Assembly: GCA_023140255.1 (NCBI GenBank)
Contig: JAGLLX010000009.1
Span: 1 to 58,759 of the forward strand
DNA: 58,759 nt
Source of the DNA: Minisyncoccota bacterium
Lineage (GTDB): Bacteria > Patescibacteriota > Minisyncoccia > Phycocordibacterales > UBA12079
Direction of reading: 5' to 3'
The notes under the pieces are model-generated. The model was given only the letters and a program-made list of their open reading frames with translations. It made no database searches and was not told where the DNA came from. Positions 11,678 to 20,189 of this stretch are shown here, piece after piece. Within the stretch, counting starts at the first letter, position 1. Each line of letters starts with the position of its first letter. The translations under genes and the position numbers were made by a program.

Positions 11678-11740
11678 TTTTAAATTTTTAACAAAAATTA
11701 AAAATCAATGATATAATGGTACCAATAATTACTTAACTTG

Positions 11741-12115
11741 ATGCAAAGTATAAAAGAAAAATACAATAAAATCAAGGCGATAGGGGATTCTCTTATAGGG
11801 AATAATCAATTTTTCAGTTTATTTTTAGTTGTTCTAGTTGCTTTTTCTTCTTTTGGGCTAGGAAGATTGTCTATATTAGAAGAAAATCAGAGTTCTGTTA
11901 CATTTGAAAATTTAGCTTTAATAAATACAAATATTGATACTGGAATAGGGGAATCAATAGGTAAGTATGTAGCTTCTAGAAGTAGTAAATTATATCATGC
12001 CCCTTGGTGTTCAGGAGCTCAAAGAATAAAAGAGGAAAATAAAATTTGGTTTCAAACAAAAGAAGAAGCTGAAGCTAGCGGGAGAAGCCCAGCTTCTAAT
12101 TGTAAAGGGATTTAG
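11741..12115 (+). CDS. Membrane-anchored protein with a C-terminal Cys-motif domain
   Basis: ATG at 11741 (the track start at 11738 is TTG). One TM. C-terminal YHAPWCSGAQRI..W..TKEEAEASGRSPASNC resembles the C-terminus of the nuclease at 13700..14443. Confidence 0.55.
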   Translation: MQSIKEKYNKIKAIGDSLIGNNQFFSLFLVVLVAFSSFGLGRLSILEENQSSVTFENLALINTNIDTGIGESIGKYVASRSSKLYHAPWCSGAQRIKEENKIWFQTKEEAEASGRSPASNCKGI

Positions 12116-13699: not shown

Positions 13700-14443
13700 A
13701 TGAAAACAAAATTAATTCTTGCCGCCATAACAACATTATTGGCAGGCTCAGGTCTTATTGGCTATAACATCGTAAAAACAAAGGATTTTAGTGGAGAACC
13801 AGAAAATCTTCACAAAGTTTTAAGAGTCATTGATGGTGATACTTTTGAAATAGCTGGGTCCAGTGAAGAAGACCTAATTTCTGTTCGTATTTTAAATATT
13901 TCTGCGCCTGAAAAAGCTGAATGTTATTTTGAAGAAGCTACTAATGCCCTTAAAGAATTAATTCTAGATAAAGAAGTTCGCCTAGAAAGAGATATTTCTG
14001 GCACCGATAGATTTGGAAGACTTTTGAGACACGTCTTTCTTCCTCTTGAAATTGAAAAAGAAGACGATATTATGTTAAGTAAATATATGATAGATAATGG
14101 ATTTGCCGTGGCTATTCCCTCTCCTCCTGATTTTAAATATAAAGAATATTTAAGTGCGGCCGAAGGTAAAGCTAAGCAATATGAAAAAGGAGCTTGGGGA
14201 GATTGTGAAAATCTACCCAACGATTTTAAAGGAACTGCTGATTCTAAACCTGATGATCCCGAATGTATTATCAAAGGAAATATTTCAGTTACTGGAGCAG
14301 GACATATTTATTTTTTACCTCAGTGTCCGTCATATTCACAAGTTAAAATTGATTCCAAAAAAGGAGAAGCTTATTTCTGCACTGAAGAAGAAGCTCAAAA
14401 AGCTGGTTTCAGCAAATCCCCTTCTTGTGCTAATACCTTCTAA
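13700..14443 (+). CDS. Secreted or anchored thermonuclease (SNase) family nuclease with a C-terminal Cys-motif domain
   Basis: N-terminal signal/TM; VIDGDTFE, NISAPE and DRFGRLLRHV SNase motifs; C-terminal YFLPQCPSYSQV...EEEAQKAGFSKSPSC. Confidence 0.82.
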   Translation: MKTKLILAAITTLLAGSGLIGYNIVKTKDFSGEPENLHKVLRVIDGDTFEIAGSSEEDLISVRILNISAPEKAECYFEEATNALKELILDKEVRLERDISGTDRFGRLLRHVFLPLEIEKEDDIMLSKYMIDNGFAVAIPSPPDFKYKEYLSAAEGKAKQYEKGAWGDCENLPNDFKGTADSKPDDPECIIKGNISVTGAGHIYFLPQCPSYSQVKIDSKKGEAYFCTEEEAQKAGFSKSPSCANTF

Positions 14444-14537: not shown

Positions 14538-14606
14538 TTAAAACAATATTAAACAGTATAAAACACCTTGGTTTTTAACACCTTTACCCATAACCACAAA
14601 AATAAA

Positions 14607-15005
14607 ATGAATTTAATTTATATAATAATTGCCGCAATCATTGGCTATATAATCGGAAAAAATAATTCTTCCAAAACTTCTCAATCACAAATAAGTCCTT
14701 TTGAAGAAATGGACGACACTGAATTAGAAAAGATGCAGACTAAGACAAAAGAAACCATCTCACAAAGAACTGAAGAACGAAAAGAAAAAATACTGGAATA
14801 TATAAAAAAAGAAAAAGCTCATCAAGAAGCTCTGGCTAACTGTAGTATAGAAGAAAGAAAAGAAGGAGTTGATCGTAAAGAAATAGAAGACCTACTAGAC
14901 ATATCAAGAAGTACCGCTTTAAAATATCTAAACGAATTAGAAAAGGAGCAAAAAATCACCCAATCCTCCCCCACCGGCCGCACCGTCCATTATACTATTA
15001 ACTAA
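14607..15005 (+). CDS. Hypothetical TM protein with a C-terminal winged-helix-like segment
   Basis: ATG at 14607 (the track start is TTG at 14568); MNLIYIIIAAIIGYIIG TM, charged coiled region, ISRSTALKYLNELEKEQKI HTH-like. Confidence 0.5.
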   Translation: MNLIYIIIAAIIGYIIGKNNSSKTSQSQISPFEEMDDTELEKMQTKTKETISQRTEERKEKILEYIKKEKAHQEALANCSIEERKEGVDRKEIEDLLDISRSTALKYLNELEKEQKITQSSPTGRTVHYTIN

Positions 15006-15015
15006 ATAAGGTAAT

Positions 15016-16098
15016 TTATTTTCCAGATTTTCTTCTATTACATTCTTTGCATAACATCTGACAATTTTCAGAAACAGTCTTTCCTCCTTCATGCCAAGGT
15101 GTTATATGATCTGCTTCCATTTCTTCTATCCCAAAATGATCTTCACATTTCGGACAAATACCTTTTTGTTTTTCGTATGTCTCTCTCTTTTGTTTATCTG
15201 TAAAAGCACGAATATTTAAGTATTTTTCGTTTTTAGTTAAAACATATTCATAAATGCCTGATTTTTTAGATACATCTTCATCTTGCATCAATTTTGTTAT
15301 TTCTTCTTCCAGTTTCTTTGAATTTATTTTTTTATTTTTAAATTCATTGTATAAAATTCCAAAGGGAACACCTTTCATTTCTTTACGATATTCAGGAAAA
15401 ACAGCTTTTATCCAATTTACAACACTTTGAAAATATAACCATAATTCATTTGCATTTGGTTCGTGCTGATGTTTTGACATATAATCTTCAATATTTTCAT
15501 TAGAAATCCACTTGATAGCAGTTTCTAAGTAATCTTGACGAATTGGTGAACCTTTCAAATAATCACTTGCTATAGAATGAGCAGGACAACCTGATTTACT
15601 AAAATGTCTTTTTGCATCAGTTAGCCAAGTTCCTGTATAAATAGCATTTCTTAATTCCTGATCAGTTAGTTTTTCCCCTGCTATATTTATAATTTTAAAC
15701 CAATCCAATTTTTCTTTATCATTCCCTTCACAAAAATATATCATCAATTTATAGTCAAGAATCTGTTCTTTTTCAGTATCTTCAAGATTATGAAAATATT
15801 GAAAATCTATGGAAAAATTACCTTCAATATATTCACATAAACTTATTGTTCGTTGCTGCCCGTCTAATACTTCAAAAGTATCATCTTCGTTTTTTACCCA
15901 ATACATCACATTAAGAGGAAAATCTTTTCTTGTGGTTTCAATTACAGCATCTCTTTGTTTGTCCTTATATATAAATTCTCGTTGGTATTTTGGACGAATA
16001 TTTAATTTTCCATTATATCCAACAACCCCCTCCTCATTATTATTTACATAACCATTCACGACTTCTCTAATTGAAATTTCTTTAAGTTCTATTTTCAT
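15016..16098 (-). CDS. DUF262 (ParB/GmrSD N-terminal-like) plus HNH endonuclease
   Basis: KYQREF and VLDGQQRTISL DUF262 motifs; C-terminal CPKC...DHITPWHEGGKT..NCQMLCKECNRRK HNH/zinc motif. Confidence 0.82.
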   Translation of the reverse strand: MKIELKEISIREVVNGYVNNNEEGVVGYNGKLNIRPKYQREFIYKDKQRDAVIETTRKDFPLNVMYWVKNEDDTFEVLDGQQRTISLCEYIEGNFSIDFQYFHNLEDTEKEQILDYKLMIYFCEGNDKEKLDWFKIINIAGEKLTDQELRNAIYTGTWLTDAKRHFSKSGCPAHSIASDYLKGSPIRQDYLETAIKWISNENIEDYMSKHQHEPNANELWLYFQSVVNWIKAVFPEYRKEMKGVPFGILYNEFKNKKINSKKLEEEITKLMQDEDVSKKSGIYEYVLTKNEKYLNIRAFTDKQKRETYEKQKGICPKCEDHFGIEEMEADHITPWHEGGKTVSENCQMLCKECNRRKSGK

Positions 16099-16102
16099 AA
16101 AT

Positions 16103-17185
16103 TTATATTTTCTTATTTTTAATAATTATACGAGCATAAGGGGCTATAAGATATTTACTATTATCACTTACATAGTGTATCACTCCAACTGGCTTTATTT
16201 TAGTTTCAAATGCTAAAACACAATTTATGGCATTACCGTTTTTTTCTGAACCATCTTTCATAACCTTTTTAGGATTTATATAGTCTTTAGTAGGAGTAAA
16301 ATTATTACGACTATTTCCAAGTGCAACTATTTCAAACTGTTCGGGGTTGTATTTATCCATAAAAGTAATTGGTACACCTATTGCACCTTTGTAGTCCATA
16401 GGAATGTTTTTTGTTATATCAACATTTATCGCATTATAATTATCATATTTAGGATAATCACTTTCATTTCCGTAATATTCTTTATATAGAATTAAATCAT
16501 CATGACGATCTTTATAATCCAAATTAGTAAACCAACGAACTCCTTTAACTCTGATATATTTATTTCCATTTTCATCAATTCTATTTCCAGCAGAATTCAA
16601 TGGATAATATTCTGGAACTCTAAACTCCCTATCCCCACTATGTATACTCTGACCAAACCAAATCTTTTCTTCTTTAACTAGTTTAAAGATTTCTTTATAG
16701 GTTAAGGCGTTTAAGTTTCCTATAATAATAAATTTTTTATTATATTCAAATAATTGAGCTACATATTCTCTAAATAAAGAAAAAGGTGGATTAGTTATCA
16801 CAATATCAGCTTCTTTTAAAATTTTTATACATTCAGGGCTTCTGAAATCCCCATTTTGCTTTAATTTAGTTTTAACAGTGTCCAATTTATTTATTTTCCC
16901 ATCCTTGTTTATATCTTTTACAATTTCTAATTTATATGAAGGTTTTTCTTTTTCAAAATGAGTAGATACTAATTTCTTTAAATCAAGATGTTCAAAATTT
17001 TCAGAAAAATATTTCCAAAAATGACTTTCTTCTGGGTCATCACAATTTAGGAAAATAATTTTACCTTTAAAATATGCTTTGTAATGGACTAATTCTTTCT
17101 CAATATCAGATAATTGAGTGTAAAATTCATCCTTTTTTGCCTTACTCGCTTTTTTTAAATTTTTGTTTGAAGATTTGTTTACCAT
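16103..17185 (-). CDS. N6-adenine DNA methyltransferase (EcoRI-methylase-like family)
   Basis: N-terminal KAKKDEFYTQLSDIEKEL, catalytic IVITNPPFSLF (NPPF); 4-nt gap to the nuclease gene. Confidence 0.8.
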   Translation of the reverse strand: MVNKSSNKNLKKASKAKKDEFYTQLSDIEKELVHYKAYFKGKIIFLNCDDPEESHFWKYFSENFEHLDLKKLVSTHFEKEKPSYKLEIVKDINKDGKINKLDTVKTKLKQNGDFRSPECIKILKEADIVITNPPFSLFREYVAQLFEYNKKFIIIGNLNALTYKEIFKLVKEEKIWFGQSIHSGDREFRVPEYYPLNSAGNRIDENGNKYIRVKGVRWFTNLDYKDRHDDLILYKEYYGNESDYPKYDNYNAINVDITKNIPMDYKGAIGVPITFMDKYNPEQFEIVALGNSRNNFTPTKDYINPKKVMKDGSEKNGNAINCVLAFETKIKPVGVIHYVSDNSKYLIAPYARIIIKNKKI

Positions 17186-17222
17186 AGATTTCTAATTATT
17201 CTCTTATATTTTATCATATACT

Positions 17223-17232
17223 CCCCCCCCCC
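17223..17232. repeat. C10 (G10 on the coding strand) homopolymer upstream of the methyltransferase gene
   Basis: Read directly as ct cccccccccc ataat; lies 38-47 nt upstream of the ATG at 17185. Confidence 0.9.
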
Positions 17233-17269
17233 ATAATATAATTTATCCATATTAATTATTAATTCCTAA

Positions 17270-17983
17270 CTATTTTTCATATCCTACACATTCACTAAGT
17301 CCTTTTGTTTTAATACAATTTTTAAAACTTGTTAGATTTTGTTCAGAAATATCTTTAATATTATCTATATTTAAATCTACCTCTTTTTTATTATAATATT
17401 TTTCATCTAACTGTCTATTTTTTTGATTTAAACTATCATTATACCCAATATAAGTCATAACAAAACCACTAAAAAATAGAATAATTGGAACAACATAAAT
17501 ATACCAACTATGGAATAACCCCTCTTTTTTTATAGTGGCATTTAATATAAAAATAAACAATACTAGAGCCCCTAAAATAAATGAAATTATACCTAAAACA
17601 AAAAAAGGCGACGATTCTGATTTAAAAATCTGAACACTAAAAGAAATAAAAGTAAATAAAGAAACAAAAATCCCTAATGTTTCTATATTTTGATCTTTTG
17701 TTTCTTGTATTTTGTCAATTTGCTCTGCTATTTCCTCTTTTAAATCGTTAACAGAATTATCTATTTTTTCTTTTGTTTCTTCTTTAATTTGACTTAACTT
17801 AGTATCTGTTTCTTTTTTGTATAATTTTAAAGTATTATTAAGCCCTTTCTGTGAATAAATACTATCCAGTAGAGTCTTCTTATATATTTCAACAACTTTT
17901 TCTGCTTCAGTATCATTTTCACTTCTTGGCTGCCCTCCTGTATCGTCAGTTAGTTTTTCAGCTTCAATTTTATCTTCATTCAT
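17270..17983 (-). CDS. Hypothetical coiled-coil protein with three C-terminal TM helices
   Basis: 237 aa; charged heptad-like N-terminal half, then GIFVSLFTFISFSVQIF, FFVLGIISFILGALVLFIFIL, WYIYVVPIILFFSGFVMTYIGY. Confidence 0.6.
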   Translation of the reverse strand: MNEDKIEAEKLTDDTGGQPRSENDTEAEKVVEIYKKTLLDSIYSQKGLNNTLKLYKKETDTKLSQIKEETKEKIDNSVNDLKEEIAEQIDKIQETKDQNIETLGIFVSLFTFISFSVQIFKSESSPFFVLGIISFILGALVLFIFILNATIKKEGLFHSWYIYVVPIILFFSGFVMTYIGYNDSLNQKNRQLDEKYYNKKEVDLNIDNIKDISEQNLTSFKNCIKTKGLSECVGYEK

Positions 17984-17994
17984 AATCGATATAG

Positions 17995-18648
17995 TTATTT
18001 ACCAAAAATCAAAAAGTTATTAGTCTCTTTGTCAAACTCGACTAGAAAACTTAAAATATCTTCTGAATTAAATTCATTTATATTTTTAGTTTCAAGCAAA
18101 GTATTGATATCTCTAGTCAAAACAATGCCATCTTTTTTACCAGTCACTCCTTTTCCAGTAAAAAATCCATTTGAAAAATGTTCAATATTATTACACTCAT
18201 AACTATAAATGCTTTTTTGTTTACTGATTCTTATGTTTATTTCTTTAAAATCTTCTTCTTTAAATTTAGTATTTAAATTATTCTTTAAATCATCAAAACC
18301 ACCTTCAATAAAAAAGGTTTTAACAAAACCCACCCTATTTATTTGAATACTTGAACTCCCGATCAAAAAATTAGAAATAGCTTCTATATATGTTGATGTT
18401 TTTTCTATATTACTTTCAAAAAATAAATCTAAACGATTTTTTGCAACACTAATATTAAAGCCTTCTAAATTCATATTAAGTCGAGGTATTTCACTAGGAG
18501 CATTACTTGGAAGTGGTATTGATTGAGTTTCTTTATAATCATCTTCATCTATTAAATCTTTCAACCCTTTTGTAAAATCTACGAAATCACCGTTGAAATC
18601 ATTCTTAAAAAATAAAGCAAATTGTATTTTTGTAATTCTTTTATCCAT
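17995..18648 (-). CDS. Hypothetical protein (no family recognised)
   Basis: 217-aa ORF, 9-11 nt gaps to both neighbours, which suggests an operon. Confidence 0.6.
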   Translation of the reverse strand: MDKRITKIQFALFFKNDFNGDFVDFTKGLKDLIDEDDYKETQSIPLPSNAPSEIPRLNMNLEGFNISVAKNRLDLFFESNIEKTSTYIEAISNFLIGSSSIQINRVGFVKTFFIEGGFDDLKNNLNTKFKEEDFKEINIRISKQKSIYSYECNNIEHFSNGFFTGKGVTGKKDGIVLTRDINTLLETKNINEFNSEDILSFLVEFDKETNNFLIFGK

Positions 18649-18657
18649 AATTTTATT

Positions 18658-19041
18658 TTAATTTTTATTTTCTCTAAATTCTTTTATATATACGTGATAA
18701 CCAAATGAGTGTAAGGAATCAGCCAAAAAAGAAGCTACTTCACTGCTATTTGTAAATCTTTTTGAAGAATTAATCCTATATTCTCCTGATGGTAATCTAT
18801 TTATTACACCTGTTTTACACAACTGATCTTCAACTTCACTAAAACAAGGTTCATCATAGCCTTCGCCGCTACTATTAGATTCATACGATTGAGCTTTTAT
18901 AATATAATCACCTTGTTCCCCAGTAGTTTTACTACCTGAAGAAGAATTTGAATTTGTTTCCACTGATAATAATAAACCCCCTGGTTGATTAATCCAAGTA
19001 GTTGAGTCGTTTTCATTTATTGAGATTGTTATATTTGGCAT
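18658..19041 (-). CDS. Hypothetical protein with a Ser/Asn-rich N-terminal half
   Basis: 127-aa ORF, first gene of the tight three-gene unit. Confidence 0.5.
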   Translation of the reverse strand: MPNITISINENDSTTWINQPGGLLLSVETNSNSSSGSKTTGEQGDYIIKAQSYESNSSGEGYDEPCFSEVEDQLCKTGVINRLPSGEYRINSSKRFTNSSEVASFLADSLHSFGYHVYIKEFRENKN

Positions 19042-19061
19042 AATTTTTATTTTATTAATTT

Positions 19062-19119
19062 ATAATAGAGAGTATTTTTAATAGAAACATTAAAAAATAA
19101 TTTCATTACTCTCTATTAT
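19062..19119. other. 13-bp perfect inverted repeat with a 32-nt loop between the protease gene and the orphan operon
   Basis: ataatagagagta ... tactctctattat. Confidence 0.6.
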
Positions 19120-19163
19120 ACCATAAAAACTGTTAAATTGCAAGCTTTTTGTATTAAATAATT

Positions 19164-20189
19164 TTATTCCCACCCTTGATTACTAACTTTCCACATAGTT
19201 TGTTCCTGTGGAACTTGAATTGGTCCGGCAGGTGTTTGTTGAGTTACGTTAACTGAACCTTTTTTAAAGCCAATAGTTAATCCAAAATAATTTGAAATAT
19301 CTGCATTTTCTATATAAGCTAACTTATAATCTTTATTAACTTCATGGTGTCCCTCAATTTCTACATCTGGATTCCAAGCTTTTCCTAATCCCATATCTTT
19401 AGAATACTCTTCATATAACTCTGTCATTGTATCAGCTAATTCTTTTTCAGCATTTACCACTGTTTTTAACCCTAAATCTTCTTTAGCTTCTTTCCTTCCA
19501 ATAAAATATTGATGTGAATATAATTTCTCTGTAAAATATTCAACTACCTTGTTAACTTCTTCTTCTTTCATTGGTGTATTATGACTTTTTAAAAGCCTTT
19601 CTGCTAATCGTCTAATTAAATTATGAGTTCTGTTTACATTACCCAAAGCCAAAGGATGAATTTGTGGTTCTGATTCTATGAATTTATTAAATATTTTTGT
19701 TAAATCTTCATCATTTTTAATTCCAAATTTTGATTTTGCTAAATCAAAATATGCCAAAACATCTTCCACTGAAATTGGGATCTTACCTTGTGGGTTTTTA
19801 GGATCTTGTGGGTTAAAAGCGTTAGCAGTTGATGGATCTATTGGAGAAATTTCTGATAAATCAGACATAACAATTTCATCAGCTCCTAGAGAAATCATGG
19901 TTGCTGCACTATGAGCTTTATAAGGGACAACTACTGAAAACTTATCACAATATTCTCTTATCATTGAAACTAATCTCCAAGGAACCATGGTATCTCCCCC
20001 AGTACTATAAAGCACTAAATCAATATTTTCTACTTTTCCTATTTCTCTTAATTGTTTAGAAATTATAGGAATAATATCCATAGCTACACGAGCGTTAAGG
20101 GGTCCTTGTCTGTCACTGGTTACATAAGTAATAACTTTTGAATTTCTTAATTGCTCTATTTTTTTTATTAAAGTTTTTCTTTCAGACAT
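19164..20189 (-). CDS. ClpP/crotonase-fold serine protease of the SDH (serine dehydrogenase proteinase) / SppA-like type
   Basis: VITYVTSDRQG..., LVLYSTGGDTMVPWRL, and KAHSAATMISLGADEIVM (candidate nucleophile Ser) match the S49/SDH pattern; ~150-aa C-terminal extension. Confidence 0.75.
   Translation of the reverse strand: MSERKTLIKKIEQLRNSKVITYVTSDRQGPLNARVAMDIIPIISKQLREIGKVENIDLVLYSTGGDTMVPWRLVSMIREYCDKFSVVVPYKAHSAATMISLGADEIVMSDLSEISPIDPSTANAFNPQDPKNPQGKIPISVEDVLAYFDLAKSKFGIKNDEDLTKIFNKFIESEPQIHPLALGNVNRTHNLIRRLAERLLKSHNTPMKEEEVNKVVEYFTEKLYSHQYFIGRKEAKEDLGLKTVVNAEKELADTMTELYEEYSKDMGLGKAWNPDVEIEGHHEVNKDYKLAYIENADISNYFGLTIGFKKGSVNVTQQTPAGPIQVPQEQTMWKVSNQGWE

Follow-up and report, generated by a model that had tools for sequence, protein, structure and literature searches.

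The 58,759-nt stretch of DNA from a Minisyncoccota bacterium analyzed here (contig JAGLLX010000009.1, hereafter the window) harbors on its minus strand, at positions 17,270–20,189, a cluster of four genes coding for an SDH-type ClpP-like serine protease, a 127-aa accessory protein, a 217-aa soluble protein, for which we use the working name FAM217, and a 237-aa coiled-coil membrane protein. The conserved unit in this cluster consists of the protease, FAM217 and the membrane protein, and its evolutionary core is the pair of the latter two. With a probability of roughly one half, the locus is a mobile defence-island conflict module, most likely of an abortive-infection (Abi) or toxin-antitoxin (TA)-like kind, that would be protease-gated in the candidate phyla radiation (CPR).

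The gene cluster and its conservation in Patescibacteria

All four open reading frames (ORFs) reported by a first-pass annotation of the window, which had been made from the sequence alone, are present as described. The protease gene (19164–20189, 341 aa) is followed by an intergenic gap of 122 nt (19042–19163), the gene of the 127-aa protein (18658–19041), the FAM217 gene (17995–18648) and the membrane protein gene (17270–17983), all on the minus strand. The last three genes are separated by 9 nt and 11 nt; spacers of this size, originally given for the whole cluster, thus apply to these genes and not to the gap after the protease. The four ORFs are more than chance products, because they are long and homologues exist.

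Loci for comparison were taken from the contexts of close homologues, from a metagenome scan and from a genome scan, and were mapped with a script based on ORFs and hidden Markov models. The order protease, FAM217, coiled-coil/transmembrane protein, on the same strand, was found in ten distinct Patescibacteria-type loci (the window, L003, L005, L008/L022, L009, L019, L021, L023, L024/L025 and L027/L028), in which the genes overlap, are separated by gaps of 4–27 nt or have a small gene inserted between them. Co-occurrence of all four genes, suggested as a check in the first-pass annotation, was therefore found for three of them, the gene of the 127-aa protein being confined to the window and to L027/L028. 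As the only syntenic homologue of this protein we found the product of a 123-aa gene of L027/L028, which is 27% identical to it along 113 aa (E-value of the pairwise comparison 6e-6). In L028 that gene occupies the same slot with gaps of 4 and 3 nt, and genes of this type are missing from the remaining protease-containing loci. The conserved unit is hence not a fixed four-gene system; in two lineages the 127-aa gene has been inserted between the genes of the protease and FAM217. The N-terminal half of its product is rich in Ser, Asn and Thr, in line with the disordered Ser/Asn-rich half noted earlier, and the C-terminal domain comprises some 60 aa; the protein has no match in Pfam, NCBIfam, PHROGs or PADLOC.

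The gap between the protease and the 127-aa gene contains a promoter-like site (TTGCAA-17-TATAAT with TG upstream, 19143–19115). It argues at most weakly for a separate transcription start after the protease, since 38 promoter-like sites were found in this AT-rich region and 33 +/- 6 are expected by chance; the scan of the window region for promoters and terminators as a whole gave nothing above chance in AT-rich DNA.

In several loci the position of the protease is taken by other genes. In L001 (6663–9133; Candidatus Moranbacteria, GCA_030648835.1) a 308-aa protein whose N-terminus (MSLAINTTTPEGIVLAADSRQ...) resembles proteasome beta subunits occupies the protease slot. Its N-terminal 50 or so residues match PF00227 with 22.9 bits, at a gathering threshold of 22.4, and TIGR03634 with an E-value of 1.6e-3, and comparison of the protein with PDB sequences yielded noise only. 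It is preceded by a 124-aa protein with a LexA-type DNA-binding domain as its only domain. From the sequences, L001 looks like a case of non-homologous protease displacement together with a possible repressor. Replacement of a ClpP-like by a proteasome-like protein in the same slot can be taken to argue that proteolysis itself is what matters. In L029 (5715–5996) and L030 (1730–2008) the slot holds a 93-aa DUF3467-like protein, 84% identical between the two loci. L007, judged from its sequence, appears degraded, with a truncated third gene and a transposase-like fragment upstream.

The two-gene core outside the cassette

More distant FAM217 genes are followed by a gene of a small membrane protein, usually with overlapping stop and start codons, and no protease is encoded next to them. 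Such pairs extend the distribution of the module from Patescibacteria to Proteobacteria, prophages of Firmicutes and enterobacterial mini-plasmids. The link of the protease to the unit, as supposed originally, therefore holds for the ten cassette loci and not for the pairs in other phyla, plasmids and prophages, nor for the protease relatives that stand alone in phages (see below).

In Pelobacter sp. UBA6093 (L017, 5977–7375) FAM217 and a partner with three transmembrane segments lie in a low-GC patch of a high-GC genome, adjoining a transposase-like ORF on the opposite strand, which is consistent with recent transfer of the pair from a low-GC donor. In Nitrosomonas (L035) a TIR protein is encoded next to FAM217 and its membrane partner, L038 has FAM217 with a small membrane partner and no protease, and in an Acidaminococcaceae genome (L037) the partner has a coiled coil and three transmembrane segments like that of the window. 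Two different streptococcal-type prophages (L039–L041) carry the pair between the tail-fibre genes and the holin/CHAP lysin genes, a classic moron slot.

The pair is also found on plasmid NZ_CP041118.1 (3005 bp; L033), which encodes at 41–718 of the minus strand a 225-aa FAM217 member, WP_023233475.1 (hhalign probability 99.9%, E-value 1e-31). Plasmids with this protein are mobilizable 3-kb replicons of the ColE1 type in E. coli, Salmonella and Klebsiella. The partner is a 127-aa ORF with two hydrophobic segments that overlaps the FAM217 stop codon and runs across the origin of the record, and the pair is the only evident cargo besides the replication and mobilization genes and one 77-aa ORF (1284–1517). 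The FAM217 homologue was found in six of 5,426 complete E. coli genomes, in all cases on plasmids.

The partners of FAM217 vary: they have one, two or three transmembrane segments, or a transmembrane segment followed by a coiled coil, and in the loci of two very distant FAM217 members, L018 and L032, they are soluble and weakly similar to each other. With FAM217 constant and its partner variable, the module resembles, by analogy, systems in which one conserved sensor is combined with exchangeable effectors.

FAM217 is a family without annotation

The Kyte-Doolittle hydropathy scan of FAM217 found no hydrophobic segment, as expected from its description as a soluble protein. The three proteins encoded downstream of the protease had been described as orphans of no recognizable family. 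Pfam, NCBIfam and PADLOC indeed contain no family for any of them; comparison of diverse FAM217 members with Pfam and NCBIfam (57 members) and with PADLOC (28 members) retrieved no curated family, and only PHROGs of unknown function match. FAM217 itself is no orphan. It has 18 close homologues among 5.8 billion clusters, and a profile search of 1.84 billion representatives yielded 656 clusters (50% identity) at E-values of at most 1e-3, 222 of them at most 1e-10. All profile matches are single-domain proteins of about 200–240 aa.

Ten residues are near-invariant in the family (Q9, F13, P55, R72, D74, R105, G107, N153, D180 and N182) and fall on successive beta strands of an AlphaFold2 (AF2) model (predicted local distance difference test score (pLDDT) 85.6, predicted template-modelling score 0.83). 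Foldseek comparison of this model with the PDB gave matches with probability 1.0 and template-modelling scores of only 0.30–0.40 to S-adenosylmethionine decarboxylase (AdoMetDC), with rolling-circle replication (RCR) Rep proteins and ACT domains also among the matches; among viral proteins the score was 0.35 to a viral TATA-binding protein (TBP), VETF-type proteins were matched as well, and the best value, 0.55, was obtained with an unnamed viral protein. The order of secondary-structure elements is compatible with a TBP/AdoMetDC-like fold. On the basis of the model, FAM217 may consist of a TBP/AdoMetDC-type sheet in which a beta-alpha-beta(n)-alpha unit is pseudo-duplicated and which bears a conserved polar site. 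A search of PDB sequences with the FAM217 profile returned nothing usable.

Two proteins of similar length were considered as members and rejected, the 218-aa protein encoded upstream of the membrane-protein homologue in L010 and the 212-aa gp32 of Gordonia phage BeeGee, both of which failed in hhalign comparison with the FAM217 profile. No relative was found in a viral contig collection scanned with alignment A3, and a phage collection searched by TBLASTN with P0213 and with the E. coli plasmid protein contained no match.

The protease

The assignment of the protease to the SDH type, which is related to MEROPS S49, was confirmed: it passes the Pfam gathering threshold for PF01972, SDH_protease (57.1 bits at a threshold of 31.3, E-value 1.9e-15), and both strings quoted in its support, LYSTGGDTMVPW and KAHSAATMISLGADEIVM, are present in the translation. 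Ser94, Asp118 and His226 are invariant across 11 aligned sequences (the window, nine syntenic homologues and gp31 of BeeGee) and represent the predicted catalytic triad, matching the Ser-Asp-His order that gives the family its name. The C-terminal extension of about 150 aa proposed earlier has to be shortened; most of it belongs to the protease domain, since His226 lies inside it and the match to phrog_11747 (1e-40) covers residues 3–265. Only residues 266–341 or so, about 75 aa, appear to be a subfamily-specific tail.

The protein scores 70.3 bits with NF047768, far under the equivalog cut-off of 250, and is therefore a divergent subfamily and not an equivalog. Head-maturation protease models match weakly (NF045542 with 34.7 bits at a cut-off of 120; phrog_1684). 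The PDB sequence search with the protease profile found no relative with a solved structure, and a single-sequence AF2 model reached a pLDDT of 37. Residues 189–257, around the catalytic His (VEYFTEKLYSHQYFIGRKEA), match weakly NCBIfam NF047641, 'FFLEELY motif protein' (E-value 6e-4), a family that may be a split or stand-alone version of the His-bearing part of the protease. A literature search retrieved nothing relevant on PF01972/SDH proteases in defence, on 'FFLEELY' or on WP_023233475.

Relatives of the protease are also found as solitary genes, in phage moron slots and in Porphyromonas phages. The gp31 of BeeGee (L016, 4920–5882), which is 27% identical to the window protease, retains the triad and has a sub-threshold match to NfeD1b_N, is encoded between lysis/tail genes and the integrase. 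The relative in the E. coli lambdoid phage-plasmid NZ_CP081704.1 (L042, 2229–3224; 37.6% identity) lies between the antiterminator Q and the holin. These positions suggest an independent accessory function of the SDH-type proteases in connection with phages.

The membrane protein

The description of the 237-aa protein as a charged region followed by three transmembrane helices agrees with the Kyte-Doolittle profile, which has hydrophobic segments at residues 102–120, 129–147 and 159–177 (approximate positions) after the charged N-terminal region. In sequence order, the protein contains a DDTGG motif near its N-terminus, a charged coiled-coil region, an IETLGIF motif at the start of the transmembrane part and, after the third segment, a tail of about 60 aa with a conserved Cys-x9-Cys, which had escaped the first reading. 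Syntenic partners come in two forms, one with a coiled coil, a single transmembrane segment and an external tail bearing a Cys-x8-10-Cys pair, and the other with a coiled coil and three transmembrane segments opening with an IE[TI][LI]GIF motif; the proteins of the window and of L029 combine three segments with the Cys tail. A topology with the N-terminus inside, an odd number of transmembrane segments and the Cys pair outside would be self-consistent, judging by the hydropathy profile and the KK of the second loop.

The nine loci compared differ least in the protease, with a median pairwise identity of 74%, more in FAM217 (47%) and most in the membrane protein (27%). A sequence search with the window protein found only two distant homologues, and its only match in PADLOC is LeoBC (1.4e-5), a weak, composition-type match over the coiled-coil/transmembrane stretch. 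The best-conserved part is formed by the first 25 or so residues, with the pattern [ILV]2-3-x-P-K/N...S/D/E-T-G-G in the partners, for example MSLLIPNNSDTGG...W/YE, and a weaker form in the window (…LTDDTGG). The N-terminus of the E. coli plasmid partner, MKFFKPKTD, is at best a loose counterpart of this peptide. We considered the N-terminal motif as a simple cleavage site of the protease and downgraded this idea; the occurrence of a loosely similar N-terminus in a plasmid module that has no protease speaks mildly against it.

Neighborhoods and mobility

Directly adjacent to the module, restriction-modification (R-M) or AbiE genes were found in at least 11 of 17 distinct loci, ten with R-M genes and one with AbiEi/AbiEii. 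The R-M pair noted next to the cluster in the window lies outside the module and was identified as an EcoRI-like N6-adenine DNA methyltransferase (16103–17185, minus strand; PF13651 8.6e-128, PADLOC MTase_II 5.5e-115) and a GmrSD_N (DUF262) plus HNH restriction endonuclease (15016–16098, minus strand; PF03235 and PF01844, PADLOC REase_II 3.8e-146). The adjacent kinds include this combination of an EcoRI-type methyltransferase with GmrSD-HNH (window, L001 and L028), MjaI, MvaI/BcnI, two type III Mod/Res pairs, a lone N6_N4 methyltransferase and a methyltransferase with a NucS-like nuclease, besides AbiEi/AbiEii. DpnI is encoded two genes downstream of the module in L003, and genes for HEPN, Fic/RhuM and TIR proteins are close to it in other loci. 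The R-M types differ between loci, so that we interpret the neighborhood as co-location in islands and not as a specific partnership. Genes of transposases or recombinases or a low-GC island flank L007, L017 and L018.

The unusual pairing of the EcoRI-like methyltransferase with the GmrSD_N/DUF262+HNH enzyme flanks the cassette in three loci, though not always on the same side (window 15016–17185, L001 2976–6554 and L028 1–726, where a nuclease fragment is all that is visible of the pair), and this R-M pairing and the cassette may travel together.

The window is AT-rich, with a G+C content of about 29%, and its genes around the cluster have functions in the cell envelope and in translation (FtsW, MurG, GltX, M23 peptidase). 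In public metagenome assemblies the same genome is represented by a 189,560-bp scaffold. Positions 17001–18000, which include the membrane protein gene, have the lowest G+C content of the window (24.7%, against about 29%), and this fits a foreign or fast-evolving segment. On the plus strand, positions 14568–15005 encode a protein of 145 aa that begins with a hydrophobic segment and ends with a winged-helix domain, for which FaeA, Csa3 and CARF-associated helix-turn-helix models gave weak matches. Its gene is convergent with the restriction enzyme gene and ends beside the 3' end of the latter; the protein could be a membrane-tethered regulator of the island. A 125-aa protein (11738–12115, plus strand) and a secreted SNase-like nuclease (13700–14443, plus strand) resemble each other at the C-terminus, where both have a motif with Cys residues, …YH/YF.P.C…F.t.EEA…G…S.…C….

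Comparison with known systems

No meaningful match was found in PADLOC-DB v2.0.0 for the protease, the 127-aa protein or FAM217. Among the comparisons with known families and systems that were run to a verdict, only that of the protease with PF01972 was positive.

Bacterial gasdermin operons are similar in that a protease encoded in the operon accompanies membrane-damaging proteins in a defence island and the protease type is interchangeable between loci. They differ in using caspase, trypsin or subtilisin-like proteases, whereas that of the cassette is a ClpP-like SDH protease. No gasdermin was present among the top 50 Foldseek PDB matches of FAM217, Pfam gave no gasdermin match, and the membrane protein of the cassette would be an integral membrane protein from the start and not a soluble pro-form.

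Lambda RexA/RexB and Kiwa KwaA/KwaB likewise combine a cytoplasmic protein with a small membrane protein and occur in prophages, plasmids and defence islands, and on the 3-kb plasmid the FAM217 pair suffices as a unit as in two-gene exclusion systems. However, PADLOC, which includes Kiwa, gave no match, no RexA-like match was found in the PDB sequence and fold searches, gene order and transmembrane architecture differ, and in the CPR clade a protease is present in addition. A similar logic is followed by TA pairs whose antitoxin is protease-labile, of which gene order and overlapping stop and start codons are what is seen here.

NfeD, a ClpP-like S49 protease, is thought to cleave its membrane-anchored coiled-coil partner stomatin. 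The resemblance to NfeD-stomatin operons lies in a ClpP-like serine protease encoded with a membrane-anchored coiled-coil protein; unlike NfeD, the window protease has neither the OB domain nor a transmembrane segment, an SPFH domain is lacking, and FAM217 has no counterpart.

FS_HP_SDH_sah of DefenseFinder is an anti-phage system borne by phage-inducible chromosomal islands. If 'SDH' in its name denotes this protease family, it would be a precedent for such proteases in defence, and its 'HP' partner may or may not be similar to FAM217; it is a lead at most. The name FS_HP_SDH_sah is mentioned in PMC13532340. The defences 'Dallas' and ldgA, which like the cassette stem from Patescibacteria, were recovered by functional metagenomics (Cell Host Microbe 2025, PMC12366544); Dallas consists of several genes, and its phenotype in E. 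coli resembles abortive infection. The cassette is a credible and experimentally approachable candidate for a new conflict module, built from families without a description in curated libraries; its novelty would be lower if FS_HP_SDH_sah or Dallas/ldgA turned out to match.

Proposed function and alternatives

The sequences themselves show the gene content and its synteny, the pattern of conservation, the catalytic triad, the predicted topology, the neighborhoods and the mobility, whereas the defence or toxin function, the direction of signalling and the substrate of the protease are what we infer in the following model. The core would be an ancient, translationally coupled pair of the approximately 215-aa soluble FAM217 and a small membrane protein, bitopic or polytopic, whose coiled coil is cytoplasmic. 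FAM217, in which invariant polar residues on consecutive beta strands form a pocket or surface, would be the conserved cytoplasmic sensor or regulator and would hold or control the membrane protein via the conserved N-terminal peptide of this partner. The membrane protein would be a fast-evolving, swappable effector that oligomerizes through its coiled coil and damages or depolarizes the membrane. In Patescibacteria a dedicated cytoplasmic protease, SDH-type or, in one locus, proteasome-beta-like, would have been added upstream in the operon. It probably acts as the gate of the switch, its substrate being FAM217, the 127-aa protein if encoded, or the membrane protein in its cytoplasmic region. 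The 127-aa protein, one half of which is disordered, is a candidate extra substrate or adaptor in its two lineages. We favor this sensor/effector model because a constant FAM217 with a variable, usually membrane, partner resembles immune modules with conserved sensors and variable effectors.

Several observations weigh against the conflict-module interpretation. None of the module proteins is homologous to a defence or toxin protein that has been validated. As CPR genomes are small, R-M genes may merely mark their sole variable regions, the adjacency given above being a raw count. The fold matches of FAM217 are only loose, with template-modelling scores of 0.3–0.55, and in L001 it is a stretch of about 47 residues, with marginal scores, that connects the protein to the proteasome. 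The window protease lies 122 nt from the rest and has solitary relatives elsewhere; it could be an independent neighbor. Finally, the invariant Arg, Asp and Asn residues could mean that FAM217 is an enzyme and the effector, and the membrane protein a Kiwa-like sensor or anchor.

Among the alternatives, a rather unlikely one which nevertheless has to be weighed is an addiction module stabilizing mobile DNA, in which the membrane protein would be the toxin, FAM217 the antidote and the protease the factor that degrades the antidote. The ColE1-type plasmids with the pair as their only evident cargo would suit such a module, as would the order of upstream antidote and downstream toxin with overlapping stop and start codons, which is typical of TA pairs, and the protease encoded in the operon could stand in for Lon/ClpP as the antitoxin protease. 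Yet FAM217 is much better conserved than typical antitoxins, with invariant polar residues that suggest ligand binding or catalysis, the moron positions in prophages and the adjacency to R-M genes fit defence equally well, and TA and Abi functions are not mutually exclusive.

It is also unlikely that two independent units stand side by side with no proteolytic link, namely a stand-alone SDH protease serving as a defence or moron gene and the FAM217/membrane protein pair. The solitary SDH relatives in phage accessory slots, the pairs without protease in other phyla and on plasmids and the gap of 122 nt with a promoter-like site after the window protease could be explained in this way. But in ten distinct loci the protease is kept immediately upstream on the same strand, with gaps of 4–27 nt, in L028 the small gene is packed in between with gaps of 4 and 3 nt, and in L001 a protease of a different class fills the same slot. 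Random neighbors in defence islands shuffle, and the genes of the cassette do not.

Signalling in the reverse, Kiwa-like direction seems distinctly less probable. Here the membrane protein with its exposed Cys-pair tail would sense phage attachment or envelope stress, and FAM217 would be the cytoplasmic effector, an enzyme or a nucleic-acid binder with a TBP-like sheet. The membrane protein evolves fastest (median identity 27%), as expected of a phage-contacting component, invariant R, D, N and Q residues lie on the beta strands of FAM217, and TBP, RCR Rep and AdoMetDC are among its fold matches. This fold similarity is weak, however, many partners have no extracytoplasmic domain (L009-type, L039 and L035), and in L018 and L032 soluble proteins replace the membrane partner.

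Housekeeping quality control of membrane proteins by a ClpP-like protease with a coiled-coil scaffold, which the pairing of S49-type proteases with membrane-anchored coiled-coil proteins in NfeD/stomatin operons might suggest, and a remnant of a prophage head-maturation protease, to which the weak matches of 34.7 bits to NF045542 and to phrog_1684 might point, are very improbable and were rejected because the distribution is patchy and island-like, with 18 close FAM217 homologues in 5.8 billion clusters and variable genomic sites, and no capsid, portal or terminase genes are nearby, besides which the window proteins contain no SPFH/Band-7 or NfeD domain in Pfam and the NF045542 score is far under the 120-bit cut-off.

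Our preferred reading remains the mobile conflict module, which in CPR would be gated by the protease. A broader proposal, held more tentatively, is that FAM217 and the coiled-coil membrane protein constitute a widespread unnamed two-gene conflict or immunity module unrelated to gasdermins, with a new sensor or enzyme fold and, in CPR, a protease gate in which the ClpP-like protease can be displaced by a proteasome-like one.

Significance

By placing ClpP-like and proteasome-like proteins in one and the same slot of the operon, nature has provided an experiment on the role of the protease, and the enterobacterial 3-kb plasmids with the two-gene core offer a readily tractable model in E. coli. 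Even a negative outcome would provide the first biological context for a family of about 650 clusters that is without annotation. If the locus serves defence or addiction, the known bacterial conflict systems would gain FAM217 as a new protein family and an architecture with a protease gate that is likewise new. Patescibacteria, a group whose phage biology is almost unknown, would gain one of their very few native systems of this kind.

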